Shown: piece after piece, positions 11,516 to 45,635 of the stretch | How the letters are laid out: each line of letters starts with the position of its first letter | Numbering within the stretch: position 1 is the first letter of the stretch | Source of the DNA: Spirochaetia bacterium | GTDB taxonomy: Bacteria > Spirochaetota > Spirochaetia > CADAEX01 | Direction of reading: 5' to 3' | Length of the DNA: 64,000 nucleotides | NCBI GenBank assembly: GCA_963662795.1 | Contig: OY759746.1 | Location: 1,024,001 to 1,088,000 of the forward strand | Made by a program: the position numbers and the translations under genes | Notes under the pieces: generated by a model | The model's database searches: none | Seen by the model: the letters and a program-made list of their open reading frames with translations, nothing else | What the model was told of the DNA's origin: nothing

Positions 11516-11597
11516 TAAACTCCTGAAAGAGTTTTTATTTTACAATAAAAAATTACTTTTTACATATTTAATAATAATATTATCATAGATCATTTAC

Positions 11598-11632
11598 AAA
11601 AAAAAGGGATGTCCCTTATCTCAGGCATCCCC
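11598..11632 (-). terminator. Rho-independent terminator of the TRAP-usp operon
   Basis: Minus strand GGGGATGCC-TGAGATAAG-GGACATCCC followed by a T run. Confidence 0.7.
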
Positions 11633-11716
11633 AGCACCAATATACCAATTCACAAGACATTTGAAGCATAATTCTTTCAACTAATTGATGAATTTCTTAC
11701 TTTCTCAAGCAGAGAG

Positions 11717-12172: not shown

Positions 12173-12200
12173 ATCTCCCCCTCCTTATGACACTTTGATA

Positions 12201-14032: not shown

Positions 14033-14034
14033 AA

Positions 14035-26988: not shown

Positions 26989-28497
26989 CTAATGAATCCT
27001 TACCCCCTGCTCTGTAAGAATCTTCTGCACTTCTGCAATATCAACATTCCCCGTAGTTTTTCCTGTCCTGAGGGAAACAGCAGCCGCGATTCCTGCACCC
27101 TGACCTGTTACTGTGCAGGCCATCATGTTCCGCATGGCACAGTGCGAAACTTTATCGCCTGCGGAGCATCTTCCTGCAACAAGGAGGTTATCAACATCAA
27201 GAGGAAGCAGGCAGCCGTAAGGAACTTCAAAATAGCGGCCTGTTGTCGGCAATATAAGGATATTGTAACCATCAAGGAATTCAGGGAAAATCCCGATCGA
27301 ATCGCCAAATTTGCCCTCTCCCCTCACATCATCGCCGGTAAGGTTATAGCGGCCTATAATTTTGCGGGAATCCCTGCATCCAAGTGTCATTCCGAAATTC
27401 CGCAGCTTTGCTTTCTCAAAACCGGGGACTACCTTTTTCAGGGCGGCAATGGCATGAAGGGTTTCCGCCCTTCCCTGCATTTCCGCCCTGGTTAAATCGA
27501 AAACATCAGTGCAGTCAATCCCTTTCATGTGCACAAGATTGAGGTTTGTAGCCTCCCCCGCATCAGTCAGGGCGGACCATGTCCCGCCTAAATTCCCGCT
27601 GCCGGCCGGAAAAACACCGAGTTCACGTGCTTTTTCAAACTCTTTTTCAAGATAAGGGCTCCTCAGGGCATCTTCCTTGCCTGTTGTTTCCTGGTCCCAG
27701 ACCCGGCTCCAGTCTGCATAGGTAGCCTTGTTCTTTTCGGTATATTTTAAAAATTTCTTTTTATCAACGCCGCTGCAGCTGAAAACTGTCGTTACCCCCA
27801 TCATCTCTTCCCTTGCAGTCTTGCGGCAGGGGGCTCCGGCGAGGTATGCAATATCAGCATCCCCGGTGCAGTCTATAACCCGCTTTGCGAGAATTGCCAG
27901 GCGCCCTGATTTGCTCTCTGTGATCACTCCGGCAATCCGGTTCTTATCCATTATTGCCTCTACCGCAAGACAATGAAGAACAGGCCTAACTCCGGTTTCC
28001 CGGATGAGATGGTCGGCGACAATTTTGAAAAAATCAGCATCAAGACATTCACTGTCATTATATGGCCATTTAACAGTACCGCCCATTCCGGCCGCAAGTT
28101 TTTCCATCTCCCGGCCTATTCCATTGGACTCAACTGTCCCTTCATAACGGTACCAGCCGAGCGTTTCCATTCCTACAGTTGTTATAACTCCGCCGAAGCA
28201 GCCGTAGCGCTCCATCAGGATAGTGTCGGCTCCTGCCCGTTTCGCAGAGAGAGCCGCTGAAAGGCCGGCCGGCCCTCCCCCTATGACAAGGACCTCGCAT
28301 TCTGCCAGGACAGGCACTTTTCTCTCCGGTTCGTATATATCTGATCTGCCGTGTTTTACAGGAAGACTTTCATTTCTTTTGTAAACAGTCTCTCTTTCAG
28401 GGTTGCCTCTTGTATTTTCCTGTTTAATTCCCGCCCAGCGGCTTATCATCCGCAGTATACTGCTTTCATATTTTTCTTCTTTATTTTTTTTATCCAT
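26989..28497 (-). CDS. FAD-dependent oxidoreductase (FAD_oxidored/PF12831 type)
   Basis: VIGGGPAG, IDCTGDAD, VPYGCLLP..VDNLLVAGRC and GQGAGIAAA motifs. Start moved to ATG 28497 (GGAG RBS). Confidence 0.88.
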   Translation of the reverse strand: MDKKNKEEKYESSILRMISRWAGIKQENTRGNPERETVYKRNESLPVKHGRSDIYEPERKVPVLAECEVLVIGGGPAGLSAALSAKRAGADTILMERYGCFGGVITTVGMETLGWYRYEGTVESNGIGREMEKLAAGMGGTVKWPYNDSECLDADFFKIVADHLIRETGVRPVLHCLAVEAIMDKNRIAGVITESKSGRLAILAKRVIDCTGDADIAYLAGAPCRKTAREEMMGVTTVFSCSGVDKKKFLKYTEKNKATYADWSRVWDQETTGKEDALRSPYLEKEFEKARELGVFPAGSGNLGGTWSALTDAGEATNLNLVHMKGIDCTDVFDLTRAEMQGRAETLHAIAALKKVVPGFEKAKLRNFGMTLGCRDSRKIIGRYNLTGDDVRGEGKFGDSIGIFPEFLDGYNILILPTTGRYFEVPYGCLLPLDVDNLLVAGRCSAGDKVSHCAMRNMMACTVTGQGAGIAAAVSLRTGKTTGNVDIAEVQKILTEQGVRIH

Positions 28498-28621
28498 ATC
28501 AACAACTCCACATGCCTTATCCGGTATAAAAATTATACAACATAAGATCAGTTTTTTCGGGCAGGGTACCAAATATTTATTATTATTTTTTACTTTTTAT
28601 CGTGCACAGCCGGACGGAGAA

Positions 28622-29890
28622 CTATGGATATTTATCTGCTGCGGTTCTTCCTTTTTCCAGCATGGCATTATACTCATGATCAGGGACAAATATGCCTCCT
28701 GTAAGCCAGGCAATATGTGTTCCTTTTACCCTGTCATTTCCGGTAATCAGGGGACCTGAAAGAGAGGCCGCGGCAGAGACTTCTATCTTTTCATTCTCGT
28801 ATTTTTTAAGCTGATAAAGATTTGCATACATCAGTTCATCGTCAACAGTATATATACCGTCTGTCAAATCCCTGCATATTTCAAGAACCAGCCCGGATGG
28901 AGAATCAACCGCAAGCCCGTCAGCATCTGTTTTCATGTTAAAACCATAATCCCTGAAATTGATTTTTTTCCCTTCAAGAAATCCAAGCATTACGGAAGGG
29001 GCATTAACAGGCTCGGCAAAATAGCATTTTACATTTTCCCCAAAAACATGTTTAAGCCCAAAGCATATCCCTCCCGGTGCCCCGCCTACTCCGCAGGGGA
29101 GATAGACATACAGCGGGTTTTCCCTGTCAACCTTAATCCCAACGCCGGCAAGCTGCTTTTCAAGCCGGAGGGCTGCCGTGCTGTAGCCCAGAAAAAGCTG
29201 CATTGAGTTTTCATCATCAACAAAATAGGAATAAGGGTCTTTAATGGAGGACGCCCTCCCCCTTTCAACCGCTTCGGCATAAGAGCCTTTGTGTTCAATA
29301 ACGTTTACACCGAGATTTCTCAGCTTGTTCTTTTTCCATTCCCTGGCATCATTTGACATGTGGATTGTCACCCTGAATCCCAGTTTCGCCGATATTATGC
29401 CGATACTCATACCCAGGTTGCCGGTAGAACCTACAGCCACATGGTAGTGCGAAAAAAAATCATTCATTGCTTTATCCGCAAATATTCCATAGTCTGAATC
29501 AGCAGTAACAAGGTCATGCTCAAGTGCAAGATCTTCCGCATGTTTTAATATTTCGTATATTCCGCCGCGGGCTTTAACTGAACCGGCAGCCTGGAGAAGA
29601 TTGTCGCACTTGATATAAAAAGGGCTTTTTGTTTTTAAAACCTTTTCAGAAAAACCTGGAGCATGTTTCAGAGGGGATTCAATTGTTCCGTCAATTGTTT
29701 CAGGGAATGCTTTCAATAAAAATGGTTTAAACCTCTCCAGACGATTTGAAGCGTCAAGGATGTCCCTAAAACCGGCTTTTTTACTATCAGGCATCCCCCC
29801 CCTGGGGAAGGGCACTGCAAAAGGGTTTTCCCAGAAAAGGCTTTCCTTGGCAAGGACTTTTTCAATTATCTTCCTGAAAGGTTTTTCCAT
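28622..29890 (-). CDS. dsdA: D-serine ammonia-lyase (PLP fold II)
   Basis: GSVKARGGIYE (PLP Lys), VGSTGNLG, FVDDENS..LFLGYS and YLPCGVGGAPGG are DsdA signatures. Confidence 0.92.
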   Translation of the reverse strand: MEKPFRKIIEKVLAKESLFWENPFAVPFPRGGMPDSKKAGFRDILDASNRLERFKPFLLKAFPETIDGTIESPLKHAPGFSEKVLKTKSPFYIKCDNLLQAAGSVKARGGIYEILKHAEDLALEHDLVTADSDYGIFADKAMNDFFSHYHVAVGSTGNLGMSIGIISAKLGFRVTIHMSNDAREWKKNKLRNLGVNVIEHKGSYAEAVERGRASSIKDPYSYFVDDENSMQLFLGYSTAALRLEKQLAGVGIKVDRENPLYVYLPCGVGGAPGGICFGLKHVFGENVKCYFAEPVNAPSVMLGFLEGKKINFRDYGFNMKTDADGLAVDSPSGLVLEICRDLTDGIYTVDDELMYANLYQLKKYENEKIEVSAAASLSGPLITGNDRVKGTHIAWLTGGIFVPDHEYNAMLEKGRTAADKYP

Positions 29891-29916
29891 TTTAAGCTCC
29901 TCATTATAAGGATTTT

Positions 29917-31680
29917 CTATTCCAGTATAGCACTTAATTCATTTTTGGCAGTATTTTTTAATAATAAGCAGATCTCATCGTTTGTCCTGCTGCTGTCTGA
30001 AATTTCAGACAAGGCCCTGGGGTCCCTTGTTGAAAGCAAAGCATTCTGTTTTGTCCTGATAAAATTTTCAAGCCCGCCGGTTTTCTCTTTCAGGGCGGCT
30101 ATGTCATCAGGGCTTATCGTCTCAAGCTCTTTAAGAGCTGCAAGTTTCACTACCCCGTCTTTGAATCTGCGGAAAAAATCATCCAGGTCTTCGCTCTTCA
30201 TGGCGAGGGTCGATCTTAACAGAAGATAATCCAGGGGTTTTAAATTGACTGCTTCATATCCGAACTGGGCGCCCGGGCGGGATATAAATCCCGAATCATC
30301 CTTTCCGTGATTGTATCTCATAAAGTAAACCATAAGATCGGCGCTTCCCCCAATTAATGAAGGGAGGTTTTTTCTGGGGAATTTTGAGAGGATATACCAG
30401 CCCGCATCAGGATCGTTTATCTCAAAAAAACGGAATCCTACTGAGCTGTTTATCGAGTCAACATGCTCACCTGCGCGAACAAGCTGGCTCTTTATATAGG
30501 AACTGTTTTTATCAATCCACTCTTGTGATGAAAATGCATAAGCTGCGACAACGCCGACTTCATTGGAGACCTCCATACCGTCGCACCCCTCGTTATCAAG
30601 AACCTTCTCCATTCTCGAAATTATACTGCCCTTATCCCCTGGAATCCACGCTCCGCTTGTCGCAAAGCCTACCCTGGCGGAAGCATAGCCGAGTGTTTTT
30701 GAAGGGGAAACTATTGTTATGGTATAATCAAACATGCGTGATAATTTTTCCGCACCGGATTCGACAGAAGCAATAGAGAATATTTTTATCCCGTCTTTTA
30801 GAATGCTGCCGTTATACACCTGGTCAGCAATGACAAAAACAGGATTATCACTGTTTTTCCTGTTGTATTCAAGAACGGTTTCAGCAATTTCCCGTATCTG
30901 GGCTTCAGGCATTACACCGCCTGACGGATTTGCCACTACACTGAAATAGATTGCCCTTATATCGCCCCTCTCCTCAAGTTCCCTGCCGATATGACAGGCA
31001 TCAAGCTTTTCAACAATCTTCAAGCGGCTGTTATGCCAGGACGGCGCTTTTACAAGACTCTGGTAATGCCCTCTCGGGACAAGTATAGTTCCGCTTGACC
31101 TTACCCGGAGGTCCCTTCCGTTTTCATCCAGAGCAACATCCTGTGTCATAAGCACATTAATAAGCGTATGATAAAGGTTTTTGAAACCTGTCCCCATTAC
31201 TACCTGATCATCGCCGACAGGAATTCCAAGATTCTGAAAATAGTTTCTCATGAGGAAACGGCTTTCAACCTGGCCGGCTGCATAATCCAGATATCCTGTT
31301 GACCCGATCTTCTGCCTCTTCTGAAAATCAAGAAAATTTTCAAAAGATTCATTCCTGAGTTCAGAATGTTTCCATAAATCCTGATACGCTTTATAAAGAT
31401 CTATGAAATAGCCGTTTGAGGGACAAAATCGTTTCAAAAGTCCGGAGAGAGGCACCGCTTCCTTTTCGGCAAACGAGGATAAAAACCCCAAAAGTGAAGT
31501 GTGATTTTTAGTATGATGCATGTGTGCTTCAAGAGCCATCGGGTTGGGGGAGAAAAAAAACTGTCCTCCTATATGAGCGTTAACCGCTTTTTCATTTCCG
31601 GCAAGCCCTTTTCCTTTTTCAGACATAAGCCTGCCCATCTCATTGTAATGAACCAGCGTTCCCGGGTTTATATTTTTCAT
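29917..31680 (-). CDS. Atypical PLP-dependent fold-I enzyme (aminotransferase class I/II-like), 587 aa
   Basis: ANPSG, DQVY and SPSKT.GYASARVG (PLP Lys/Arg) motifs, with large N-terminal insertion and C-terminal extension. Confidence 0.75.
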   Translation of the reverse strand: MKNINPGTLVHYNEMGRLMSEKGKGLAGNEKAVNAHIGGQFFFSPNPMALEAHMHHTKNHTSLLGFLSSFAEKEAVPLSGLLKRFCPSNGYFIDLYKAYQDLWKHSELRNESFENFLDFQKRQKIGSTGYLDYAAGQVESRFLMRNYFQNLGIPVGDDQVVMGTGFKNLYHTLINVLMTQDVALDENGRDLRVRSSGTILVPRGHYQSLVKAPSWHNSRLKIVEKLDACHIGRELEERGDIRAIYFSVVANPSGGVMPEAQIREIAETVLEYNRKNSDNPVFVIADQVYNGSILKDGIKIFSIASVESGAEKLSRMFDYTITIVSPSKTLGYASARVGFATSGAWIPGDKGSIISRMEKVLDNEGCDGMEVSNEVGVVAAYAFSSQEWIDKNSSYIKSQLVRAGEHVDSINSSVGFRFFEINDPDAGWYILSKFPRKNLPSLIGGSADLMVYFMRYNHGKDDSGFISRPGAQFGYEAVNLKPLDYLLLRSTLAMKSEDLDDFFRRFKDGVVKLAALKELETISPDDIAALKEKTGGLENFIRTKQNALLSTRDPRALSEISDSSRTNDEICLLLKNTAKNELSAILE

Positions 31681-31718
31681 GCTGTTAATCTCCTGTGCAA
31701 ATTATCTGTAAACTGTTT

Positions 31719-33173
31719 TTAAAGGCCCATTAATTCAACTGCATCACCCCAGGTTTTAATTCTGCCGGGCCGCATGCCCCTGTGGAGAGGATTGATATAG
31801 CCCCGCAGCTGATTCAGGGAGTCTCTTATTTCTCCCCTTATCCATTCTGATTCACCTTTCCAGACCCTCGAAATTGAGGATATCTCACCGGAGTGTATTT
31901 TTTTCTCCTCCACAGGCTCTCCGTTTTCAATGATTCTCAGATTAAATATTTCAGAACATTCTTTCAGTGTCAGGGTAATTTCGAGATTGATATCAGTGCC
32001 TTTTTTTACTTCAGTACCGGGAAGAAGAATAGTGCCTCCGGAGCTGTAGGTAAAATCAAATTCCAGATCTGATGATACCACAACCCTGTGTTTTCTTACC
32101 CCTTCAAGAATTGAGGATAATGACCCTGATTTGGCAAAAACCCTGGTAGCCGGCTGACCAAGCTGCGAAGCAGAAAAACCGGAATGGGTGTCGCTGCCTC
32201 CGATTCCTGTAATTCTGTAACCCTCATTCCAGAGATGATCAATCATTTTAAGCGCTTTTTCATTTGTATCTCCCAGATTTCTGTCATGAGGATCTGTTAT
32301 CAGCTCAATAGAATCGATCCATGAAAGAGGCAGATCGTTATAAATCCACTGCCAGGGAACAAAAAAAGGATGGTTGATTGAGACAAGTACCCGGTTGTTC
32401 CTGAAGTTCTCAATAATTGGAGCAAGGTCTTTCCACGAAGGATCCGGTCCTTTTTCAAGAATACTTTCAGGCATATAACAGAGACCCAGCGCGTTGAAAT
32501 GACCGCGGCTTAATGTTACTTCGAAAGAAGGAAATACACTTATCCCTTTTCTTTCGGGGAAACCGGTTGTAAGAATATTGTGCTCGGTGATAAAAAAGAA
32601 ATCCAGATTCCTGGATATTCCCTCATCTATAAGCTCTGAGGGAGAAGCAGAACCATCTGAGAGAATTGTGTGGGCATGAAAATCTCCGCTAAGCCATTTA
32701 CTTTCAACAGTATCAATGTTTTCAGGTTCAAAATCCTTAAGATGAACAATCCCTTTCGACAACGCGGCCTGCCCGATCCAGCTGACATAATCGCAGGAAG
32801 CTGTCTCATTTTCAGCTTGGTCATAAACCTTCACGTCATACAATACCCTTCCCATCGTCCTGTTTGTCCAGGCTCCGAAGGTGTAAACCTTTATGTGCCA
32901 CTCCCCTTTCCTGATTTCTCCGGGAATAGTGCCTATACAGGATTTTTCCGCATCCCGGTTAAGAATAATCTTTACTGGTACATCCGCTCCCATGCGCTGG
33001 ACTCTTAGTATTCCCTGCGGATCTATAACATGGAAAAAAATATGCTTTCCTCCCCCGAAGAATTCAAACTCAAGGGAGGAAATATCTTTATCAATATTGA
33101 AAACAGATGAGGAAACATAGTTTGACGGTTTGTCATTATCCACAAACCCTTCGGTTTTAAATATTAAGCTCAT
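31719..33173 (-). CDS. CehA/McbA-family PHP-domain metallohydrolase
   Basis: GDFHAHT..SDG, ITEHN, E.T...GHFN, INHP and GGSDTH metal ligands. Confidence 0.85.
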   Translation of the reverse strand: MSLIFKTEGFVDNDKPSNYVSSSVFNIDKDISSLEFEFFGGGKHIFFHVIDPQGILRVQRMGADVPVKIILNRDAEKSCIGTIPGEIRKGEWHIKVYTFGAWTNRTMGRVLYDVKVYDQAENETASCDYVSWIGQAALSKGIVHLKDFEPENIDTVESKWLSGDFHAHTILSDGSASPSELIDEGISRNLDFFFITEHNILTTGFPERKGISVFPSFEVTLSRGHFNALGLCYMPESILEKGPDPSWKDLAPIIENFRNNRVLVSINHPFFVPWQWIYNDLPLSWIDSIELITDPHDRNLGDTNEKALKMIDHLWNEGYRITGIGGSDTHSGFSASQLGQPATRVFAKSGSLSSILEGVRKHRVVVSSDLEFDFTYSSGGTILLPGTEVKKGTDINLEITLTLKECSEIFNLRIIENGEPVEEKKIHSGEISSISRVWKGESEWIRGEIRDSLNQLRGYINPLHRGMRPGRIKTWGDAVELMGL

Positions 33174-33177
33174 TTAT

Positions 33178-34056
33178 TTACTTCAAGGCGGGATCCAGTT
33201 TATCCCTGACCCAGTCCCCCATTATACTCATTGAAAGCGTGGTAATAAAAATTGTAATTGCCGGAATTATGGCAAGCCACCAGGCGGTGAGAATATAGTC
33301 CCTGCCGAAACCCACCATGTTCCCAAGGCTTGTGTTGGGAGGCTGGATACCGAGTCCAAGGAAGCTTAATGATGTTTCCATCATGATAACCTGAGGGAAG
33401 TTAAGCGTCATGTTTACTATAAGAGTGTTTCCTACGTTTGGCAGAATATGCCGCAGATAAATCCTGACCGGGGATGCCCCGAAAGATCTTACCGCTACCG
33501 CATAGCCCTGCTCTTCCGCGGAAAGGGCAAGCCCTCTCGCGAACCTGGCATATCTTTCCCAGCCGTAGATACCCATTATCCCGATAAAAAGGACAATACT
33601 GTTCTCAAAGAAAGCTATTACGGCGAGAGCAAGAATCATGAACGGCAGGCTTGCCTGAAAATCAACAAGCATCATAATAAAGTCGTCGACCGCCCCCCTG
33701 AAGTGGGCCGCAAAAAATCCCAATGTTGTGCCGGCTATTGCGCATATAACTGTTCCGAGTATAGCTACCAGAAGACTTAAGCGGATTGAATGAAACAGTC
33801 TGCTTAATATATCTCTGCCAAGATCATCAGTTCCAAAAAAATGGGCACTATCGCCGCCGTCCATCCATGAGGGAGGAATCAGCCTTCCTGAAAGGCTTAT
33901 CTGCTGAAAATCGTATGGAGCTATAACAGGTGCGGCAATCCCTATGAGTATCATTACAAGAACCCATACTGCCGCTACAACTACAATAACGGTTTTTCCC
34001 TTGATTTTATTTTCAGATAACGCAATCCTGTTACCGCTGGTTTTATTATTATACAT
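33178..34056 (-). CDS. dppC: Dpp/Opp-family ABC transporter permease (C)
   Basis: HFFGTDDLGRDILSR, RHILPN and LSFLGLGIQPP motifs. Confidence 0.9.
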   Translation of the reverse strand: MYNNKTSGNRIALSENKIKGKTVIVVVAAVWVLVMILIGIAAPVIAPYDFQQISLSGRLIPPSWMDGGDSAHFFGTDDLGRDILSRLFHSIRLSLLVAILGTVICAIAGTTLGFFAAHFRGAVDDFIMMLVDFQASLPFMILALAVIAFFENSIVLFIGIMGIYGWERYARFARGLALSAEEQGYAVAVRSFGASPVRIYLRHILPNVGNTLIVNMTLNFPQVIMMETSLSFLGLGIQPPNTSLGNMVGFGRDYILTAWWLAIIPAITIFITTLSMSIMGDWVRDKLDPALK

Positions 34057-34058
34057 TG

Positions 34059-34997
34059 TTATTCTCCCCCTCTTGAAAGGCTTACCCTGGGGTCAAGCAG
34101 CCCGTAAACAAAATCTACTGCAAGATTGGTTACAACCATTGAACAGCTTATAAGCATTACAATAACCTGAACTACGTTATAGTCCCTGTGCTTGACTGAA
34201 TATACAAGGAGCCTTCCGATTCCGGGCCAGCCGAAAATTGACTCTGTTATTACAGCGCCTGCAATAATAAGCCCTATCCAGAATCCGCATATGGTAACGA
34301 TTGGTATTGAAGCGTTTGGGAGCGCATGCCTTCGGACTACCTGCCACCAGGTGAGCCCTTTTGCAAGAGCTGTCTTTACATATGGCTGGTAAAGCACTTC
34401 AAGCATCGCAGAACGTGTAAAACGGGCAAAGATTGCGGCTTCTACTATTGTCATTGTAAGAATAGGCATAATGTAATGGCGCCAGGTTCCGCTTCCTGCG
34501 GACGGGAGCCATCCCAGCTGTATGGAAAAAAGGAGAACCAGAAGTACCCCGACAACAAATGTCGGCATACTGTAGCCTGCCACGGCAAAGATCATTATTA
34601 ATCTGTCTTTATTGCTGTTGTGATAAAGGGATGCAAGCAGCCCCAGAAAGATTCCGACTGCAAATGTTAGAGCCGTTGTGATTGCCATGAGAATCAGTGT
34701 ATTGGGAAGCCTTAAGAGAACAGAATCAAGCGCGCTTGTCCCTTCAAGGATGGACTGTCCCAGGTCTCCTCTTACAGCATTGGATATAAACCTTAAATAC
34801 TGCACGATGACAGGATCATCAAGACCCCATTTAGCACGAAAGGCTTCGACAGCTTCGGGGCTTGCTTCAAGCCCGAGCACAGAGACAGTCGGGTCTCCGG
34901 AAAGCCGTAATATCATAAATACAAATGTCGTAACCATGAAAACAGTAAAAAAAGCCCTGATAACTTTTCTGATGTAATATGCGCTGTTCATTTCCAT
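34059..34997 (-). CDS. dppB: Dpp/Opp-family ABC transporter permease (B)
   Basis: GLDDP...QY..F......GDLG.S, YVKTALAKG and ESIFGWPGIG motifs. Confidence 0.9.
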   Translation of the reverse strand: MEMNSAYYIRKVIRAFFTVFMVTTFVFMILRLSGDPTVSVLGLEASPEAVEAFRAKWGLDDPVIVQYLRFISNAVRGDLGQSILEGTSALDSVLLRLPNTLILMAITTALTFAVGIFLGLLASLYHNSNKDRLIMIFAVAGYSMPTFVVGVLLVLLFSIQLGWLPSAGSGTWRHYIMPILTMTIVEAAIFARFTRSAMLEVLYQPYVKTALAKGLTWWQVVRRHALPNASIPIVTICGFWIGLIIAGAVITESIFGWPGIGRLLVYSVKHRDYNVVQVIVMLISCSMVVTNLAVDFVYGLLDPRVSLSRGGE

Positions 34998-35983
34998 ACC
35001 TCCCCTTCAAGAGCAAAGCAGGCCGCTTTCCTTCCATCATCAAGTACTTTAAGATCCGGCTGAACCTTTGAGCATTGAGGCCTGGCAAGAGGACAGCGGG
35101 GGTGAAACCTGCAGCCGGACGGCGGCCTGAACAAACTCGGGATCTCTCCTTCAAGAATTGTTTCTTCCCTTTTTACCCTCGGATCGGGAATCGGAATAGC
35201 GTTTATAAGCGATTTCGTATAGGGATGAAGAGGCCTGTTGAACAGCAGTTCGCTTTCTCCATGCTCTACAATATTTCCCATATACATAACTGCCGTATCG
35301 TCGCAAAGGTGTCTTACCATTGAAAGATCGTGACTTATAAAAAGAAGGGTAATGCCTCTTTCCTCCCGTATCTGCATTAGCAGGTTGACGACCTGCGACT
35401 GGATTGACACATCAAGTGCAGAAATGGGTTCATCGCATATCAGTATTTCCGGATCAAGTATCATCGCCCTGGCAAGGACAATCCTCTGCCTCTGGCCGCC
35501 TGAAAGCTGATGCGGATACATTTTCCCGTGACTTTCCTTCATTCCCACAGATTCAAGCAGGGAAACCGCTTTTTTATAGTAATCCCTTATATTTTTTCTG
35601 CCGTAATGAATGATCAGTGGTTCATATATCTGCTGGAGGACAGGGATCCTCGGATTTAAAGCTCCCATCGGGTCCTGAAAAACATACTGGATATCCCGTC
35701 TGATCCTTTTTTTCTCTTCCCCTTTAAGCCCTGTAAGTTCTTTATCATGATATGTGATTGTCCCTGCTGTAGGTGAATAAATATCCATGATGATTTTGGC
35801 AGTCGTTGATTTCCCGCAGCCTGATTCTCCGACCAGTCCCAGGGCTTCTCCCTTTTTTATGGTAAAATCTATCCCGTTTAAAACATGAACATGCTTTTTC
35901 TTCTGCCAGGGCATTCCATTATTCTTGACACGAAATTTTTTGGAAAGATCGTTTACTTTCAATATTTCTTTTACAGTTTCCAA
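34988..35983 (-). CDS. dppF: Dpp/Opp-family ABC ATPase (F)
   Basis: GESGCGKST, LSGGQRQR, DEPISALD, HPYT and a C-terminal Cys cluster. Confidence 0.92.
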   Translation of the reverse strand: METVKEILKVNDLSKKFRVKNNGMPWQKKKHVHVLNGIDFTIKKGEALGLVGESGCGKSTTAKIIMDIYSPTAGTITYHDKELTGLKGEEKKRIRRDIQYVFQDPMGALNPRIPVLQQIYEPLIIHYGRKNIRDYYKKAVSLLESVGMKESHGKMYPHQLSGGQRQRIVLARAMILDPEILICDEPISALDVSIQSQVVNLLMQIREERGITLLFISHDLSMVRHLCDDTAVMYMGNIVEHGESELLFNRPLHPYTKSLINAIPIPDPRVKREETILEGEIPSLFRPPSGCRFHPRCPLARPQCSKVQPDLKVLDDGRKAACFALEGEVWK

Positions 35984-36969
35984 ACCATTCCCTCCTTTAC
36001 CGGATTAAAGCAGAAAAAATGCCTTGATTCCTCTTTAATGCTTTCAGGACTTTCATCCCTGCACTTATCCACTACATTCATGCATCTGTCATAAAAAGGA
36101 CAGCCTTCAAAAAGTTTCTCCGGTGCAGGGACAACACCCTCGATTGTAAAAAGTTTTTTAACCTTGATGTCTATTCTGGGTTTTGAAGAAAGCAGTCCGA
36201 AAGTATAAGGATGCCTCGGTTCAACAAGAACATCCTCAACACGGCCGTATTCCATGATCCTGCCGCCGTACATGACAGCAGCACGATCGCAGGTTTCAGC
36301 AACTACTCCAAGATCATGAGTGACAAGGATTATGGCCATATTTCTTTCTTTGCGGAGTTTTTTCAGTAGCCGCAGTATCTGGGCCTGTATTGTTACATCA
36401 AGGGCTGTAGTGGGTTCATCAGCTATAAGAAGCTTTGGATTTCCCGCAAGCATGATAGCAATCATGACTCTCTGGTTCTGGCCGCCTGAAAGCTGATGGG
36501 GAAATTCTCCCATCTTTTTTTCCGGGTCAGGAATTCCAACTTCTTTTAAAAGTTTTGCTGCCTCATCCTTATAAACCCCCGATCCTTTCCCTTCAAGATC
36601 TTTTCTCAGCATCAAAGCTTCCAGCAGCTGGGTTCCGATATTCTGTACAGGGTTAAGTGAACTCTGGGCATCCTGGAATATCATTGCAATTTCTTTTCCC
36701 CTTACCGCGGTTATTTCATTTTCTGAGCAGCTTAACAGGTCTTTACCGCCGAACAGGACTTCCCCTTCTGTCCAGCCCCGTTCACCAAGAAGTCTGACCA
36801 CTGCAAAGCAGGTGACGCTTTTACCGCTGCCTGACTCGCCTACTATGCCCAGTATTTCACCAGGCCCGACTTCCAGGTTAACGCCCCGGACAACAGGATT
36901 CCCTTCATGTGCACCGTTAAAGCCGACAGAAAGATTTTTTATCTGCAGAAGCGGATTTGTAATATTCAT
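35971..36969 (-). CDS. dppD: Dpp/Opp-family ABC ATPase (D)
   Basis: GESGSGKS, LSGGQNQR, DEPTTALDV, HPYT and GCPF..RC motifs. Confidence 0.92.
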   Translation of the reverse strand: MNITNPLLQIKNLSVGFNGAHEGNPVVRGVNLEVGPGEILGIVGESGSGKSVTCFAVVRLLGERGWTEGEVLFGGKDLLSCSENEITAVRGKEIAMIFQDAQSSLNPVQNIGTQLLEALMLRKDLEGKGSGVYKDEAAKLLKEVGIPDPEKKMGEFPHQLSGGQNQRVMIAIMLAGNPKLLIADEPTTALDVTIQAQILRLLKKLRKERNMAIILVTHDLGVVAETCDRAAVMYGGRIMEYGRVEDVLVEPRHPYTFGLLSSKPRIDIKVKKLFTIEGVVPAPEKLFEGCPFYDRCMNVVDKCRDESPESIKEESRHFFCFNPVKEGMVWKL

Positions 36970-36980
36970 AGATCAACTCC

Positions 36981-37019
36981 AAAAAAGCCGGGGACATGCT
37001 GATCTGCAGCCTGTCCCCG
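36981..37019 (-). terminator. Intra-operon hairpin with U tract after the binding-protein gene
   Basis: CGGGGACA.GCTG-loop-CAGC.TGTCCCCG followed by TTTTTT on the minus strand; typical of differential mRNA stability or partial termination. Confidence 0.65.
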
Positions 37020-37050
37020 TAATTTTATTTTACAAGGTCACAATCATTCA

Positions 37051-38607
37051 TCAATTGGAAAGTTCTACCTTACCTGCCCTGAAATCCATGAAATGCGAAC
37101 CGCTTGTTTCCCATTTAACTTTATCGCTCTGTCCGTAAAAGAGCGGAAGAAGATAAAGATAGGTTCCGGGAGGATCAATGTTTTCTGATATTTCAAGCAT
37201 ACTGGCGACAGCTTTTCTTCTTGAAGCAGGATCAGTGCCGTTAACTGTTTCAAAGTTTTTATTGAATTCATCATTTGCCTTCCACATTTTATGAACCTGG
37301 AACCATCCATCCGGACCGTAAAGACGGGCAATCTGTGACAGAGGGTCGGAGAAAATTGCTGTTGCAGACCAGTTAATGATTCCCCTTCCCGGAGCTGCTT
37401 CATCTGTTTCAATCTGGTCCCAGTTTTCCTTAAGTTCAAGCTTCACATTAAGGCCTACATCAGCCCACATCTGCTGAAGAATCTGGGCAGTGGCAACCTC
37501 GCCTGTGTAGTAGTCAACCATGTATCTGTAGCCGATCTCTTCACCCTTATAGCCTGCTTCTTTCAGAAGTTTTTTTGCTTTTTCAGGATTAAAACCTACA
37601 GGTTTAAACTCCTTGATATACATATCTCCGAAATTCTTCATCTGAACACCTTTAGGCACTTCAGAAAGACCTTTGAAAATAGTGTTGTTGATAAGTTCCC
37701 TGTCTATTGAATAGTTAAGGGCAAGGCGGATTCTCGGGTCCTTAAGTACAGGGGAAGCAACGCTGTCATAAATAATTACCCTGACGTTATTGATCGGGCC
37801 GCCGGTAACTTTAAAGCCTTTCTTCTTTTCGATAGTGCTGAACTGGTCAGGCATAACCTCGGTGATTATATCATAGTCATTTGAAAGAAGACCCATTATT
37901 CTGGGTGACATTTCAGGAATTACTATATACTTGATTCCGTCAAGAGGCGCTTTGTCTCCATAATAGTCATTGAATTTTTTGAATGTTATATATTCATCCG
38001 GTTTAAATTCTGAAACATAATAGGGACCGAATCCGACCGGTTTTACCATCCACTCTTCCCAGCTTTTTTTGGTTTTGTATGAATCTCCGCAGATAATTGC
38101 TGAGGTAATATATGTAAACCTCAAAAGAAGAAGCGGGTCCGGTTTTTCTTTTGTAAATCTTACAGTGTAATCATCAATCTTTTCAATTGACTGAAAAAGC
38201 CCGGTATACTGTTTAAAGGCATCATAGCCAGGATCTTCGGGAACCTTGCATCTGCCTTCCCCGAAAGAAACAAGTACATCATCAGCATTGAGCGGGAACC
38301 CTGCATGGGAAACTATCCCTTTCTTCAGTTTGAATTCCACAGTTCTGTCATTGATCTGCTTCCAGCTTTCCGCGAGCATCGGGATAATTTTTCCGTCCGG
38401 TGCAACTTCAATCAGGGTTTCATGCATATTTCTCATTACACGCTCTGATACATTGTCGCTGTTTGCTACAGTATCGAGAAATCTCGGATTATCCGGCACA
38501 CCTACTCTTAAAACTTTTTCCTTTGTCTGTTCCTGTTTACCACCCGCAAAACCTGCCGTGGCAACAGAAACTGATAAAATCAATAAAAAAATCATAAATT
38601 TTTTCAT
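37051..38607 (-). CDS. ABC substrate-binding protein, family 5 (DppA/NikA/AccA-like)
   Basis: PMLAESW, PVGFGPY, DPRIRLALNYSIDR and FNPEKAKKLLKEAGY motifs. Start moved to ATG 38607 (AGGAGG RBS; signal peptide ending FAGG). Confidence 0.9.
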   Translation of the reverse strand: MKKFMIFLLILSVSVATAGFAGGKQEQTKEKVLRVGVPDNPRFLDTVANSDNVSERVMRNMHETLIEVAPDGKIIPMLAESWKQINDRTVEFKLKKGIVSHAGFPLNADDVLVSFGEGRCKVPEDPGYDAFKQYTGLFQSIEKIDDYTVRFTKEKPDPLLLLRFTYITSAIICGDSYKTKKSWEEWMVKPVGFGPYYVSEFKPDEYITFKKFNDYYGDKAPLDGIKYIVIPEMSPRIMGLLSNDYDIITEVMPDQFSTIEKKKGFKVTGGPINNVRVIIYDSVASPVLKDPRIRLALNYSIDRELINNTIFKGLSEVPKGVQMKNFGDMYIKEFKPVGFNPEKAKKLLKEAGYKGEEIGYRYMVDYYTGEVATAQILQQMWADVGLNVKLELKENWDQIETDEAAPGRGIINWSATAIFSDPLSQIARLYGPDGWFQVHKMWKANDEFNKNFETVNGTDPASRRKAVASMLEISENIDPPGTYLYLLPLFYGQSDKVKWETSGSHFMDFRAGKVELSN

Positions 38608-38816
38608 ACGATCCTCCTGTTTTTTTAAAAATTCTATACCCGGCACCGGGATCTGTATATTTACAATTTTTAACCTGTTTACAAAAAATAATTTTCCGGA
38701 GCTCTTTTTCACCTGAATGAATATATAATTATTAATATTAGTATTTTTTATTATGCGTAAGCACCAAGTCTCTATTAATTCGTGATTCAAAGGCAGGGAT
38801 GAACCGATATGTGATA

Positions 38817-41051
38817 TCAGTCTTTTCTTGTCATCATTTCCCTGTATTTACCCGGACTTATACCGGTGAGGCTTTTAAAATTCCTGATAAACGTTGTTTC
38901 ATTATAATAGCCGACTATTTTTGTAATATCTTTAACACTGATATCACTTTCTTCAAGCAGTATCTTTTTAGCCTCTTCAATCCTGCAGATATTGATGTAC
39001 TGAAGCAGCCCTGTATCGTTGACTTCCTTGAATATTTTCGAAAGATACTGTGTTGTAACACCCAGACTTTCAGCTATCCCGGGCCCTGATATATTTTTAC
39101 CGCTGTAATTTTTCTCTATATATTTTTTGGCAGATAACGCAATATCTGATACATTTCTGTCCGGTGAAAGCAGGGCAAGTTCAGAGAAAATCAGATCGGC
39201 AGTTTTTCTGAACTGCAGGAAACTCTTGCATTCCATTATTTTTTTTACAAGATTTTTCAGGTTTTCCCTGTCGCTGCGAAGGATGGTATTAAGCGCTTCT
39301 ATCAGGATATTCTGAAACCCGGCAAGCCTTAGTTTGAGTATGTCAATATCAATATAGTTTTCTTCGATTGAATTGATTCCCCCTTCCATGACTGTCTTTG
39401 CCTCATCATAATTTCCGGCAGCCAGAAGGTTATATATCTTGTACTCATCCTCAAGATAGGAAAGATAGCGGAAAGTGCGGCTCTTTTCCAGATTCTTAAG
39501 CTCTCTGAAAAGGAGGATCTCTTTTTCTTCAAGGAGGGTCCTGTATTCAAGCACCCGCAGAGCTTCACTGTAAGAGAGTGATATACCTGCAAGTGAATCA
39601 TAAATCTGGCCTGACGTGACAAGAAAATCAATTTCGCTTCCTTCCCTTATAAGTGAGGATATCTCTGCCAGGGTATTTTTCAGCTGCATATAATCGCTGC
39701 TGCCGATATTGATAATAATTACGTTTTTACCTGAATAGACAAGAGGATAGCAGCTGTATTTTGACTCAAGCGCTTCCTGTTTGCGGATAAGCTCATTTTT
39801 AAATCTGAAAAAGTTCAGGCTGTCATTTTGTCTTAAATCGGCAATCATTACGGCAAAGTACTCGGAAGCAAACGAAACACCGAATGTATCACCGATATCC
39901 GCGGCAAGGGCCTCTCCAATCTCCTCTCCCATTATCAGTCTTCTAAGGAAAACCATTTTGAGATTGTTCTTATTCTTGAGAAAGGTTTCTTTTATACTTA
40001 TATTTTCATCTATTACAGATTTTATGCCGTTTTCAAGCATTTCAAATTCATTTATATAGTTTTCGTAAATCTTTCTGAAATTTTTCTGGCTGAACAGATT
40101 TACAAGCTCGCTTATCGGAACATAGTTTTTCCTTGCAAAAAACAGGGACAGAAAAATTCCGGCAGTAAGACAAATTGCAAGCAGGAAAAGTACCGTCTCC
40201 TGAAATTTTTTAAGTTTTCCGTAAAAAACAGAATCAGGGACAATGATTGTATAATACCAGTCCAGAATATCTGATTTTATAACAGAGATAATCTGTCCGC
40301 TTCTTTCGATTTCGTAGTATTTATCGTTTTCAGGCAGATTATCGGGAAACGCTGCCGCCTCATTTCTCAAAGATGAATCAATTTCAATATTTACGACTGA
40401 AGATAATATCTGCCCGTCACTGTTTAAAATAAATCCGGCCCCTTTTTCTATCCACTCAATCTGCCTGATGCTTTTTTCCAGCATCTCCGGTTTGATAAAA
40501 ACAACCAGGTAATAGTCCGAGCTGTCTTCACTCATCATAAAAAATTTGGTTGTGAAATAAAGTTCAGCTCCTTCCGACAGTCTGTTAATATCATCAAAGG
40601 AAAACGCCTTTCCCTTGTTTACCGACACTTTATCCCAGTCAATTCCGGCTGACTGATAATTATCAGGGATTATTCTTTCTCCCGAGGTCTTCTCCCTTTT
40701 TTCATTGACTATATAGATCTGGTCGATGTATGGATTAAGAAATCTTAATTCCTTGATTTTTTGTTCAATTGAATCCCTGAATTCAGCGTTCTCTTCTTCA
40801 AGTTTAAGATAGAGTCTTATCTGCCTGTCCCAGATAAGCTGATTTGTTATGTTTTCAATCTCGAAAAGTCTGAAATCAAGAAGATCTTTCATCTGGTTCA
40901 GGGTAGTTTTTTTATGAAATAAGCTCTCATATTTTATGATATCAACAGAGTAAAAATAGTTAAAAAGGCTGAAAACAAGGGGTATAATGAAAACCAGAAT
41001 ATATGACGTAAGCCAGATATAGAAGGTTCTCCCCTTTTTTATAATTCCCAT
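38817..41051 (-). CDS. Membrane-anchored AraC-family regulator with an extracytoplasmic (Cache-like) sensor domain
   Basis: Two TM segments flanking a ~250-aa domain; C-terminal AraC HTH YIEKNY...YLSKIFK...RIEEAKKIL...VGY...FIRNFK..TGISPGKYR. Confidence 0.88.
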   Translation of the reverse strand: MGIIKKGRTFYIWLTSYILVFIIPLVFSLFNYFYSVDIIKYESLFHKKTTLNQMKDLLDFRLFEIENITNQLIWDRQIRLYLKLEEENAEFRDSIEQKIKELRFLNPYIDQIYIVNEKREKTSGERIIPDNYQSAGIDWDKVSVNKGKAFSFDDINRLSEGAELYFTTKFFMMSEDSSDYYLVVFIKPEMLEKSIRQIEWIEKGAGFILNSDGQILSSVVNIEIDSSLRNEAAAFPDNLPENDKYYEIERSGQIISVIKSDILDWYYTIIVPDSVFYGKLKKFQETVLFLLAICLTAGIFLSLFFARKNYVPISELVNLFSQKNFRKIYENYINEFEMLENGIKSVIDENISIKETFLKNKNNLKMVFLRRLIMGEEIGEALAADIGDTFGVSFASEYFAVMIADLRQNDSLNFFRFKNELIRKQEALESKYSCYPLVYSGKNVIIINIGSSDYMQLKNTLAEISSLIREGSEIDFLVTSGQIYDSLAGISLSYSEALRVLEYRTLLEEKEILLFRELKNLEKSRTFRYLSYLEDEYKIYNLLAAGNYDEAKTVMEGGINSIEENYIDIDILKLRLAGFQNILIEALNTILRSDRENLKNLVKKIMECKSFLQFRKTADLIFSELALLSPDRNVSDIALSAKKYIEKNYSGKNISGPGIAESLGVTTQYLSKIFKEVNDTGLLQYINICRIEEAKKILLEESDISVKDITKIVGYYNETTFIRNFKSLTGISPGKYREMMTRKD

Positions 41052-41086: not shown

Positions 41087-42268
41087 TTACATTTTTAACT
41101 TTACATCGGAAAAAGCACTGATAAGCCGTTCGATGTCTTCAAGGCTGTGTTCCGCCGTGATCTGGACCCTGATTCTGGCTTTTCCGGTTGGAACAACAGG
41201 ATATGTAAAGGGAATGACATAAAATCCCTTCAAATAGAGCTGCTGAGCTGCAACAGAAGCCGGCTTTTCATCATAAAACATTACAGGTATTATAGCTGTT
41301 TCCCCGTCCCTGATATCAAACCCGCTTTTTTTCATCCCTTTTCTGAAATAATCGGATTTTTCCCTGATATCAGATATAAGTGAACTTCCTGATTTTTCAA
41401 GAATTGAGAGCGCAGTAAGTACTCCTCCTGCTATCACAGGGGGAAGCGTATTTGAAAAAAGGTAAGGCCGGGATTTCTGCCTGAGCATCTGCACAATTTC
41501 CTTTCTTCCGCAGATGCATCCCCCCGATGCCCCCCCAAGGGCTTTGCCGAATGTTGTTGTAATAATATCGATCTTCCCTGTAACATTGAAATGCTCTGCC
41601 GTTCCCCTGCCTGTTTTTCCTATATACCCGCTTGCGTGCGAATCATCTACCATAACAAGGGCGCTGTATTTTTCCGCAAGGGCGCATATCTCATCAAGCG
41701 GCGCAAGGTCGCCGTCCATGGAGAAAACTCCGTCTGTACAGATTATCCTGAACCTGGAATCTGCAGCCTCCTTGAGTTTTGCCTCAAGGACCGCCATATC
41801 AAGATGGCTGTAACGCAGTCTTTTTGCCTTGCACAGCCTTATCCCGTCAATAATGGAAGCATGGTTAAGTTCATCAGAAATTATCGCGTCATTTTCATCA
41901 AACAGAGGCTCAAATACCCCGCCGTTTGCATCAAAGCAGGCAGCAAAAAGAATCGCGTCCTCGGTTCCTGTAAAATCGGCTATTTTCCTTTCAAGAAGCT
42001 TGTGTATGGACTGTGTACCGCAGATAAAGCGTACAGATGAAAGTCCGAATCCCCATCTTTCAAGCGACTTGATTGCCCCTTTTGCGATATCGCTGCGTCC
42101 TGAAAAGCCCAGGTAGTTATTTGAGCAGAAATTTAGCAGTTTCTTCCCGTCGGAAGTTTCTATCTCCCTGCCCTGCCGGGATATGATCTCCCTTTCAAAT
42201 TTATGAACCCCTCTTTCCTCTATTCCTTTCAAAATATCCTGCGCATATTTCCTGTAAGTGCCATACAT
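41087..42268 (-). CDS. kbl: Glycine C-acetyltransferase (2-amino-3-ketobutyrate CoA ligase)
   Basis: NFCSNNYLG, SVRFICGTQ, NHASIIDGIRL, DDSH, TFGKALGGASGG and RQKSRPYLFSN motifs. Confidence 0.95.
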   Translation of the reverse strand: MYGTYRKYAQDILKGIEERGVHKFEREIISRQGREIETSDGKKLLNFCSNNYLGFSGRSDIAKGAIKSLERWGFGLSSVRFICGTQSIHKLLERKIADFTGTEDAILFAACFDANGGVFEPLFDENDAIISDELNHASIIDGIRLCKAKRLRYSHLDMAVLEAKLKEAADSRFRIICTDGVFSMDGDLAPLDEICALAEKYSALVMVDDSHASGYIGKTGRGTAEHFNVTGKIDIITTTFGKALGGASGGCICGRKEIVQMLRQKSRPYLFSNTLPPVIAGGVLTALSILEKSGSSLISDIREKSDYFRKGMKKSGFDIRDGETAIIPVMFYDEKPASVAAQQLYLKGFYVIPFTYPVVPTGKARIRVQITAEHSLEDIERLISAFSDVKLKM

Positions 42269-43227: not shown

Positions 43228-43282
43228 ACAAACCTCCTCCTGTAATTCCCATGATAAAAAGCTTGAATAATTGCAGGACACA

Positions 43283-43361
43283 TATTATAGTAAATTAATA
43301 TTCACTATATCAAACTTTATATTTTTATTATAGTGAATTATTATTTAGTATGTCAAACTTT
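43283..43361. promoter_or_regulatory. Two tandem 36-bp copies of a promoter/operator unit between tdh-kbl and the divergent regulator
   Basis: 43283-43318 and 43326-43361 differ at 5 of 36 positions. Each reads TTGA(C/T)A-18 bp-TATAAT on the minus strand and contains the imperfect palindrome TATAGT(A/G)AAT-N4-ATT(C/T)A(C/G)TAT. Confidence 0.75.
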
Positions 43362-43383
43362 TTTTAAAAAGGAAGCATAAATC

Positions 43384-43962: not shown

Positions 43963-43963
43963 T

Positions 43964-44833: not shown

Positions 44834-44847
44834 TCCTGCTCCGTGTG

Positions 44848-45519: not shown

Positions 45520-45635
45520 AATTGCGAGATTAGCATTAATCTTAATTAATTGTACAGGAGAAGCAGGCTTTGTCTTAGGCAGTATAACCTGTCGCCGGTT
45601 TATTAATGTACTCATTTTATGATATATTCCCATCC

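Follow-up and report, generated by a model that had tools for sequence, protein, structure and literature searches.

We analysed a 64,000-nucleotide stretch of DNA from a Spirochaetia bacterium (assembly GCA_963662795.1, contig OY759746.1, positions 1,024,001 to 1,088,000; hereafter the window), in which a minus-strand gene cluster at positions 28622-41051 appears to encode the uptake and breakdown of a D-serine conjugate. An earlier note on this DNA had described nine co-directional genes, and all nine open reading frames (ORFs) were found as follows. The first gene encodes a 744-aa membrane-bound one-component regulator of AraC type (38817-41051; HTH_18, 68.8 bits). Next come genes for a family-5 solute-binding protein (SBP) of the AccA clade (37051-38607; SBP_bac_5, 243 bits), two ATPases of an ATP-binding cassette (ABC) transporter, of OppD/DppD type (35971-36969; ABC_tran and oligo_HPY) and OppF/DppF type (34988-35983), and two permeases, of DppB/NikB type (34059-34997) and DppC/NikC type (33178-34056); the second ATPase and both permeases were assigned by Pfam/NCBIfam match. 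The last three genes encode a 484-aa PHP-fold metallohydrolase of CehA/McbA type (31719-33173), a 587-aa pyridoxal phosphate (PLP) enzyme with a class-I aminotransferase fold (29917-31680), and the D-serine ammonia-lyase DsdA (28622-29890). Gaps from the SBP gene to dsdA were, in order, 81, -13, -10, 2, 4, 38, and 26 bp, as expected from the spacing given in the note (2-81 bp or overlapping). The OppF-type ATPase gene overlaps the previous gene by 13 bp, and the first permease gene overlaps by 10 bp.

The longest ORF of the SBP gene starts at 38790. The ATG at 38607 is most probably the true start, with AGGAGG upstream of it and, after it, a segment resembling a signal peptide; the SBP orthologues are 509-516 aa long. 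This start leaves a 209-bp spacer between the AraC and SBP genes. A weak consensus scan, to which we attach no weight, revealed no terminator-like site on the minus strand between cluster genes. The genes may be co-transcribed; among the 16 sequencing runs listed for the stretch, none was an RNA run that contains it. The same type of scan gave 56 promoter-like sites in the window vs 37.4 expected, and 23 terminator-like sites vs 18.6 expected; the best promoter-like site (12/12, at 43356-43327) was located upstream of a tdh-like gene, not of the SBP gene. A tenth co-directional gene, 49 bp after dsdA, encodes a FAD_oxidored family protein (26989-28572; PF12831, 294.8 bits) with a hydrophobic segment at residues 8-26, and may be co-transcribed with the operon. 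It was conserved only in a locus of the same genus (L014, 87% identity); because it is not conserved outside the genus, we dropped it from the core.

Orthologues of the PHP metallohydrolase (40-63% identity) were present in 18 distinct loci (L011 is identical to L098, and L013 to L095), 14 of which were informative downstream of the PHP gene. Loci L014-L018 are assigned to Spirochaetia, and L012, L019, and others to Desulfobacterales. The conserved synteny that the note had proposed as a check was found: further genomes and metagenome contigs share the gene order, indicating that the arrangement reflects more than chance. The OppD-type ATPase is 74-83% identical across orthologous loci. The regulator is evidently membrane-bound, as had been claimed, because it has two hydrophobic segments (residues 8-39 and 283-308), which flank an outside domain of ~245 aa; a GGDEF_2-like region (23.5 bits, below cut-off) and then HTH_18 follow this domain. 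AraC orthologues with 53-62% identity lie upstream of the transporter in L014, L015, L016, and L018, and a GntR/UTRA regulator takes their place in L012, L019, and L097. In L017 the PHP gene is followed by a glutamine amidotransferase gene and then by the contig end.

DsdA of the window passes both equivalog models for D-serine ammonia-lyase, NF002823 (504.3 bits; cut-off 246) and TIGR02035 (459.1 bits; cut-off 368.25). Its gene was no more than two genes away from the PHP gene in 11 of the 14 informative loci. The order PHP-PLP-DsdA was found in the window, L014, L016, L018, L101, and L103 (frameshifted in L103); PHP and DsdA without the PLP gene were found in L012, L019, and L097, and, with the other type of DsdA, in L100 and L108. 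There are thus three arrangements: PHP-PLP-DsdA, PHP with a Desulfobacterales-type DsdA, and PHP with a Spirochaetia-type DsdA. The DsdA-linked loci span Spirochaetia and Desulfobacterales, i.e., two phyla. Desulfobacterales DsdA scored 685 bits on NF002823, and identity between the Desulfobacterales and Spirochaetia proteins was 46-48% for DsdA, 51-56% for PHP, and 75-78% for SBP. In our reading, two lineages of DsdA have become linked to one transporter-PHP core, a pattern that favours a functional explanation over inheritance. The linkage and the two lineages also support D-serine as the end product, as the earlier note had proposed. The operon has L-serine dehydratase genes as neighbours in L016, L018, and L019, and in the window such genes lie 3 kb upstream of it, which adds to the serine theme.

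We also searched 41 genomes of relatives, and DsdA scored above cut-off in 7. Four genomes have a PHP orthologue (G000, the window's own, and G002, G005, and G011), and DsdA adjoins PHP in all four. G015, G030, and G043 carry DsdA in other contexts. G008 has an eroded copy of the operon (L145; G008:C32:12000-31000, ~10500-14450): DsdA (64% identity) and sdaAB have stayed intact, the AraC and permease genes survive as short fragments, and nothing is left of the SBP, ATPase, PHP, and PLP genes. An alternative explanation of the cluster is chance adjacency, i.e., a generic nutrient importer that happens to lie beside an amino-acid catabolism island comprising dsdA, the aminotransferase gene, kbl/tdh, and sdaAB. 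The presence of kbl, a tdh-like gene, and sdaAB just upstream of the cluster, the retention of DsdA and sdaAB in G008 while the transporter decayed to fragments, and the other contexts of DsdA in G015, G030, and G043 are consistent with this explanation. It is nevertheless improbable in view of the PHP-DsdA linkage across two phyla, the two DsdA lineages in three gene arrangements, and the gaps of only 26-38 bp between the PHP, PLP, and dsdA genes in the window.

When the SBP was compared with all PDB sequences, the seven best matches were AccA proteins, aligned over their full length (178.6-198.8 bits, E 1e-57 to 2e-51); the top match was AccA 4ra1 (E 1.3e-57, 198.8 bits). Scores were 108.6-110.8 bits for E. 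coli dipeptide binders of DppA type (1dpp, 8z1z) and ~60-70 bits for nickel binders. Among plasmid sequences, the best matches were AccA-type proteins of Agrobacterium/Rhizobium, with 35-39% identity. Judged by sequence, the SBP is closest to AccA, the binder of agrocinopine and agrocin 84, rather than to peptide or nickel binders, and the importer would be no ordinary peptide or nickel system, in line with the interpretation in the earlier note. Import of nickel, an opine, or a metallophore was rejected as less supported, since the NikA, Opp5A, and CntA models gave 82-132 bits against cut-offs of 393-800 and AccA scored higher. A homologue of the SBP in Roseibium adjoins genes for a PhnF-type regulator and an alkaline-phosphatase-family protein.

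According to excerpts of the AccA structural study (PMC4526662), the phosphate of the buried pyranose-2-phosphate is contacted by N54, S419, Y375, and Y376, the sugar OH1 is held by N54, E510, N284, and S419, and W178/W423, at the positions of DppA Met152 and Asp408, form the gate. We mapped these excerpted residues by hand on the pairwise alignment, with the offset fixed by the YY, NWS, and W178 contexts, and checked the mapping by a MAFFT alignment of 11 sequences (the window SBP, six orthologues, three AccA paralogues of pAtK84b, and the Roseibium homologue). The four phosphate contacts correspond to N113, S475, Y427, and Y428 of the SBP and were invariant in 11/11 sequences, as was N335 (AccA N284). 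The other positions were replaced: E510 by H566, W423 by I479, T430 by Q486, and E434 by L490, each invariant in the seven orthologues, and W178 by I, Q, or D, depending on the orthologue (I228 in the window SBP). D112 and R489 were invariant only within the orthologue group. The SBP therefore lacks the residues of the pyranose-2-phosphate pocket, i.e., the E510 anchor and the W178/W423 gate. Because the phosphate contacts are kept and the pyranose contacts are replaced, the SBP is presumably AccA-like in its working but no agrocinopine binder, as far as the contacts in those excerpts go. It seems to have kept the phosphate grip while its head-group pocket was rebuilt so that a pyranose would no longer fit; the ligand would then be another phosphate ester. 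The new set of acidic, basic, and His residues in the pocket could hold an amino-acid zwitterion.

Family-5 SBPs with OppD/F-type ATPases are typical peptide importers, and the second permease scored 194.6 bits, against a cut-off of 434, on NF007376 (D,D-dipeptide permease). The cluster might accordingly serve the salvage of D-amino-acid peptides: D-Ser di- or oligopeptides, e.g., cell-wall D-Ala-D-Ser, would be imported, the PHP enzyme would act as a metallopeptidase, and DsdA would remove the D-serine. We regard this possibility as unlikely. The SBP matches AccA with 199 bits vs ~110 bits for DppA and keeps the phosphate contacts reported in the AccA excerpts. Asp408 of DppA presumably anchors the peptide amino group; the equivalent position, as placed by those excerpts, is I479 in all seven orthologues, such that the peptide-anchoring aspartate is lacking. 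Two features of the PHP enzyme presented below also disagree with a peptidase: the named enzymes among its top fold matches are phosphoesterases or nucleases (the matches 3e38 and 2anu being without substrate), and UgpB-like binders and HAD hydrolases are encoded next to its distant homologues.

The resemblance to the acc operon (AccR, AccA-E, and AccF; agrocinopines and agrocin 84) of Agrobacterium/Rhizobium Ti plasmids and pAtK84b extends beyond the SBP type and the excerpted phosphate contacts. By comparison of annotations, the order SBP-ATPase-ATPase-permease-permease-hydrolase is that of accA-B-C-D-E-accF of pAtK84b; the PHP gene occupies the accF position, and no GDPD gene is present in the cluster. 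The logic would also be alike, with a phosphodiester imported and then cleaved in the cytoplasm. The two systems differ in that the esterase is the GDPD-type AccF in the acc operon and PHP-fold here, the regulator is AccR there and of membrane AraC or GntR/UTRA type here, and the pyranose-2-phosphate pocket residues of the AccA excerpts are replaced here (E510 by H, W423 by I, W178 by I/Q/D). In addition, the acc host is a plant-associated alphaproteobacterium, whereas the window comes from a metagenome-assembled genome (MAG) of a free-living Spirochaetia bacterium, and only here do DsdA and an aminotransferase-fold enzyme follow downstream.

The hydrolase has no Pfam match and passes NF038032 (CehA/McbA family metallohydrolase) with 149.5 bits (cut-off 80) over residues 159-462. 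Its AlphaFold model (predicted local distance difference test score, pLDDT, 90.8; predicted TM-score, pTM, 0.92) comprises an N-terminal beta-sandwich (residues 1-121), a PHP barrel (~158-371), and a C-terminal beta-sandwich (~370-465). An alignment of 29 sequences revealed nine invariant residues, D164, H166, H168, D173, H198, E218, H268, D328, and H330, which include the HxH motif; all but D164 we take to be metal ligands by analogy with the PHP superfamily. The closest solved folds were 3e38 (Z 18.6; 202 residues aligned, root-mean-square deviation 3.0) and 2anu (Z 18.2), followed by EndoQ (Z 15.9), PsfC (15.7), the BAD_1165 phosphoesterase 3o0f (15.3), RNase AM (13.9), and polymerase PHP domains; sequence comparison with 2anu gave an E value of only 5e-4. 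The HxH motif and the His/Asp/Glu set are thus shared with PHP phosphoesterases (2anu, 3e38, 3o0f, RNase AM, EndoQ, PsfC; barrel Z 14-19), and the window enzyme differs from these and from CehA/McbA in its extra N- and C-terminal beta-sandwich domains. No hydrophobic segment was found in the hydrolase, the PLP enzyme, or DsdA, and we therefore read all three as cytoplasmic. As a separate observation, the PHP proteins of the window, L014, L016, and L018 are 51-52% identical, and their SBPs, PLP enzymes, and DsdA proteins 65-85%.

The NCBIfam model passed by the hydrolase takes its name from the carbaryl hydrolases CehA and McbA, and three of the orthologous loci contain an arginase-fold gene (see below). 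The hydrolase might accordingly follow a carbamate or ureido route and cleave a compound of O-carbamoyl- or O-ureido-D-serine type. We consider this very improbable: the family label is the sole pointer to carbamates, nothing else here suggests carbamate chemistry, and the SBP phosphate contacts (as known from the AccA excerpts), the UgpB-like/HAD context, and the structural similarity to phosphoesterases are all indicative of phosphate esters. Among the carbaryl hydrolase papers listed, titles and abstracts made no mention of a PHP domain. Of the serine conjugates that the earlier note had envisaged, the phosphoester branch therefore gained support from the excerpted AccA contacts, the PHP phosphoesterase fold, and the UgpB/HAD context, and the carbamate or O-acyl branch retained nothing beyond the family label.

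The context of the wider PHP family was obtained from a pattern scan with one genome per species, which gave 573 matches; 418 of these encode a PHP relative, and 79 of the 418 loci were kept. Among them, 70 loci (L020-L089) with ~27-35% identity formed the set of distant homologues, whose neighbours were scored by tblastn. Of the 70 loci, 57 encoded a family-1/8 UgpB-like SBP immediately upstream of PHP, and 45 encoded a HAD hydrolase immediately downstream; a MalK-type ATPase lay within 3 kb of PHP in 25, all three were present in 21, and none of them in nine (L021, L022, L031, L038, L046, L048, L054, L065, and one other arrangement). Pfam annotation of six distant loci, whose neighbouring genes served as the tblastn queries, revealed the order permease-permease-SBP-PHP-HAD hydrolase in four (Clostridium, Psychromonas, Roseburia, and Psychrilyobacter), with a MalK-type ATPase after the module in Psychromonas (L042) and Roseburia (L089). 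The best solved relatives of the SBP in the distant loci are M. tuberculosis UspB/UgpB and E. coli UgpB, and its sole NCBIfam match is UgpB, below cut-off. The module is widespread and occurs in Bacillaceae, Lachnospiraceae, Clostridium, Psychromonas, and Psychrilyobacter, and many of the PHP relatives belong to gut Lachnospiraceae and to Bacillaceae; examples of the module are L029:6729-12218, L042:6765-13338, and L089:6754-13195.

In the distant loci PHP is thus flanked by a UgpB-like binder on one side and by a HAD hydrolase with a MalK/UgpC-type ATPase on the other, i.e., at the position of UgpQ in the Ugp system (UgpBAEC and UgpQ; glycerophosphodiesters). The window differs from the Ugp system in its family-5 (Dpp/Acc) importer and its lack of a HAD phosphatase, and PHP is not homologous to UgpQ. 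We propose that the PHP enzyme is a candidate phosphodiesterase, mainly because it follows two unrelated kinds of organophosphate binder at the place of UgpQ or AccF. No characterised member of this clade of 480-500-aa PHP/CehA-McbA proteins was found in the literature searched; a joint mention of polymerase and histidinol phosphatase with Ugp terms was likewise absent among the matches listed.

Taken together, the cluster can be explained, with moderate confidence, as an acc-like operon for uptake and catabolism of an organophosphate ester, in which a D-serine phosphodiester is imported and cleaved and the D-serine is deaminated. The membrane-bound AraC-type sensor would respond to the compound outside the cell, the AccA-clade SBP would hold it by its phosphate group, and the Dpp-type ABC transporter would import it. 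In the cytoplasm, the PHP metallohydrolase would cleave the phosphoester and free D-serine, which DsdA, if it has the activity of its family, would convert to pyruvate and ammonia. Glycerophosphoserine, which the earlier note had named as an example, carries L-serine and hence explains DsdA poorly. The E. coli dsdCXA locus, which has a DsdX-type permease and the LysR regulator DsdC, handles D-serine with the same end enzyme family. The window cluster lacks such a permease and regulator, and here D-serine would arrive within an imported conjugate rather than free. By analogy, the operon would represent the acc/ugp type of phosphodiester utilisation, with its non-homologous esterase and D-serine end point as new elements.

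To our knowledge, work on bacterial D-serine catabolism has mostly concerned free D-serine, and no bacterial description of an import-and-release route for a D-serine phosphodiester was found in the literature searched. Such a route would suggest that a D-serine conjugate occurs naturally in sediments and soils and serves there as a nutrient. In addition, it would provide a concrete, assayable function for the ~480-500-aa PHP/CehA-McbA proteins, a large uncharacterised family, and would be a case of an AccA-type phosphodiester binder adapted outside plant-pathogen opine biology.

The PLP enzyme scored 41.2 bits on PF00155 (Aminotran_1_2; gathering threshold 19.7). No named aminotransferase model of NCBIfam was passed (best 29.8 bits; cut-offs 376-550). 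Invariant residues were the SPSK motif with K328, and N251, D286, Y289, and R336. The structural model (pLDDT 78.5) has helical N- and C-terminal extensions, and Foldseek placed it closest to prephenate and aspartate aminotransferases (E 6e-16 to 1e-12; target-normalised TM 0.61-0.72). The invariant Arg in the C-terminal 'LRS' stretch is presumably the alpha-carboxylate-binding Arg of class-I aminotransferases; if so, the substrate is an alpha-amino acid. The relatives of this enzyme form a closed family of 46 clusters (55-94% identity), mostly from Spirochaetia with a few Desulfobacter-type MAGs, and in the ESM Atlas an 82% homologue (P0081) fell into generic aminotransferase clusters only. 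The PLP gene follows PHP in 7 of the 14 informative loci. A search of the L012 and L019 genomes, two Desulfobacterales with the core operon, did not reveal the enzyme, which is therefore not part of the core and appears to be an accessory step linked mainly to Spirochaetia. The racemase role considered for it in the earlier note is unlikely in view of its class-I aminotransferase fold and of the negative search in these two genomes.

A paralogue with 62-63% identity was found in G045 (L154; G045:C1:3751000-3770900, 6290-13867), beside genes for a LuxR-type regulator, a DUF1015 protein, an AsnC regulator, a D-2-hydroxyacid dehydrogenase, and a family-3 amino-acid ABC transporter. This context hints at a route from an amino acid via a 2-oxoacid to a 2-hydroxyacid and names no substrate.

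The PLP enzyme and the DsdA homologue might, in principle, act on another beta-hydroxy or amino moiety of an imported phosphoester, or on an aminated sugar acid derived from a sugar phosphodiester similar to agrocinopine, so that free D-serine would not be a true intermediate. The acc-like architecture is compatible with this explanation, and in L014, L016, and L018 the operon is flanked by TIM-barrel genes resembling xylose isomerase. However, both DsdA lineages score far above the equivalog cut-off (504 and 685 vs 246 bits), the pyranose-anchoring residues named in the AccA excerpts are replaced, and in the window, L016, L018, and L019 the operon has L-serine dehydratase genes beside it or close by. 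We therefore consider this explanation unlikely and favour D-serine as the moiety released from the phosphodiester.

Several observations weigh against import and cleavage of a D-serine phosphodiester. No nearby DsdA was found in three of the 14 informative loci. In L015 the PHP and PLP genes are followed by a radical SAM gene resembling anaerobic sulfatase maturases, and DsdA is encoded elsewhere in the genome; the neighbours in L011/L098 are IS91-like, DUF4143, CN_hydrolase, HDAC-like, and polyamine-type ABC genes; and those in L099 are genes for HPP, RpiR, and M20 peptidase proteins and a choline/ethanolamine-kinase fragment. Of 12 loci informative in this respect, 10 and not all have the acc-like ABC genes immediately before PHP. 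In L097, a gene for a VanX-like M15 D-Ala-D-Ala dipeptidase lies ~1.5 kb beyond the operon, which fits the salvage of D-Ser peptides. The cluster in the window encodes no phosphatase for the second product, and the proposed steps do not account for the PLP enzyme. As for the hydrolase, its best fold matches, 3e38 (BVU_3505) and 2anu (TM0559), have no assigned substrate, and its family label names carbamate hydrolases. Between the window and the same-genus locus L014, moreover, PHP is only 52% identical, as compared with 80% for DsdA, 78% for the SBP, and 82% for the PLP enzyme; this fast divergence of PHP could reflect shifting specificity or relaxed constraint. Finally, the SBP shares no more than 35-39% identity with AccA and has a different head-group pocket, so that our assignment of the ligand class relies on the four conserved contacts.

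An arginase-fold gene lies between the SBP and first ATPase genes in three of the nine loci in which this junction is visible (L012, L015, and L019). The products of these operon-embedded genes scored 280-284 bits on PF00491 and 200-208 bits on the agmatinase model TIGR01230 (cut-off 174). Their best solved relatives are guanidinobutyrase 3nio (259.5 bits), 3-guanidinopropionase 3nip (247 bits), and proclavaminate amidinohydrolase (247 bits), followed by agmatinases (191-198 bits). The embedded enzyme thus appears to be a ureohydrolase of guanidino-acid type; guanidinobutyrase and guanidinopropionase both use short omega-guanidino anions as substrates. Its position within the transporter genes suggests that the compound imported by those relatives of the window probably carries a guanidino group.

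These features raise the possibility, which we put forward tentatively and regard as rather doubtful, that the substrate is lombricine (2-guanidinoethyl D-seryl phosphate) or its precursor D-serine ethanolamine phosphate, possibly including the L-serine forms, and that the operon serves catabolism of an annelid phosphagen. This idea was drawn from the AccA match and DsdA before the ureohydrolase genes were seen, and a guanidino-acid-type enzyme is what a guanidinoethyl phosphate ester would predict. The AccA-like binder would grip the phosphodiester, and the ureohydrolase, where present, would remove urea from the guanidinoethyl end. The PHP enzyme would split the diester and free D-serine, which DsdA would deaminate, and the aminotransferase-fold enzyme and the neighbouring L-serine dehydratase would handle L-forms or the other half of the molecule. 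A serine phosphodiester is hydrolysed to serine and a phosphomonoester by serine-ethanolaminephosphate phosphodiesterase of animal tissues (EC 3.1.4.13), and the same reaction would be carried out here. We know of no bacterial gene assigned to this activity and of no link between it and a PHP enzyme.

Excerpts of published studies describe lombricine as carrying the D-form of serine in most annelids and the L-form in echiuroids (PMC6429109), as highly abundant in earthworm muscle (PMC8300811), and as one of the most concentrated metabolites of earthworm extracts (PMC2424032). Two findings speak against lombricine as the substrate: the ureohydrolase orthologue of the window genome (84% identical) is encoded 1.9 Mb away in another context, and a habitat tie to worms is not established. 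The literature searched, which left subscription journals and older phosphagen biochemistry mostly outside, yielded no report of bacteria using lombricine or serine ethanolamine phosphate; the phrase serine ethanolamine phosphate occurred, among the matches listed, only in a lizard metabolomics study. If lombricine were the substrate, the bacterium would be a testable candidate for a recycler of annelid phosphagens, and the PHP/CehA-McbA proteins would form a new cytoplasmic phosphodiesterase family that takes the place of UgpQ/AccF in hundreds of import operons. The distant ureohydrolase orthologue (L142; G000:C1:2968500-2988499) lies beside LysR, Ldh_2, and ADP-ribosylglycohydrolase genes, and a second FAD_oxidored (PF12831) gene is present nearby, inside a TRAP transporter cluster.

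Several genes adjoin the operon in the window or in related loci. On the minus strand at 41087-45714, kbl (glycine C-acetyltransferase, 561.6 bits) is located directly upstream of the AraC gene; it is overlapped by 1 bp by a gene of the NAD-dependent epimerase/dehydratase family, which is possibly tdh. In L014, kbl adjoins the AraC gene as well. A divergent regulator gene with helix-turn-helix and cupin domains (43384-43962, plus strand) is followed by the genes for the alpha and beta subunits of L-serine dehydratase. The radical SAM gene that stands in the DsdA position of L015 (L015:13155-14309) scored 412 bits on TIGR03942, and in L019 a gene of the octopine/nopaline-dehydrogenase family (L019:10126-11223) follows DsdA. 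Downstream of the FAD_oxidored gene, both the window (25102-26928, minus strand) and L014 (L014:16276-18102) encode a 608-aa HATPase_c_3 protein with weak MutL/HSP90-like matches; a canonical HSP90 gene is present at 15299-17173 of the window. At 2174-11515 of the minus strand, the window contains a giant ORF of 3113 aa, whose sole Pfam match is a C-terminal FlgD Ig-like domain and whose product may be a surface protein.

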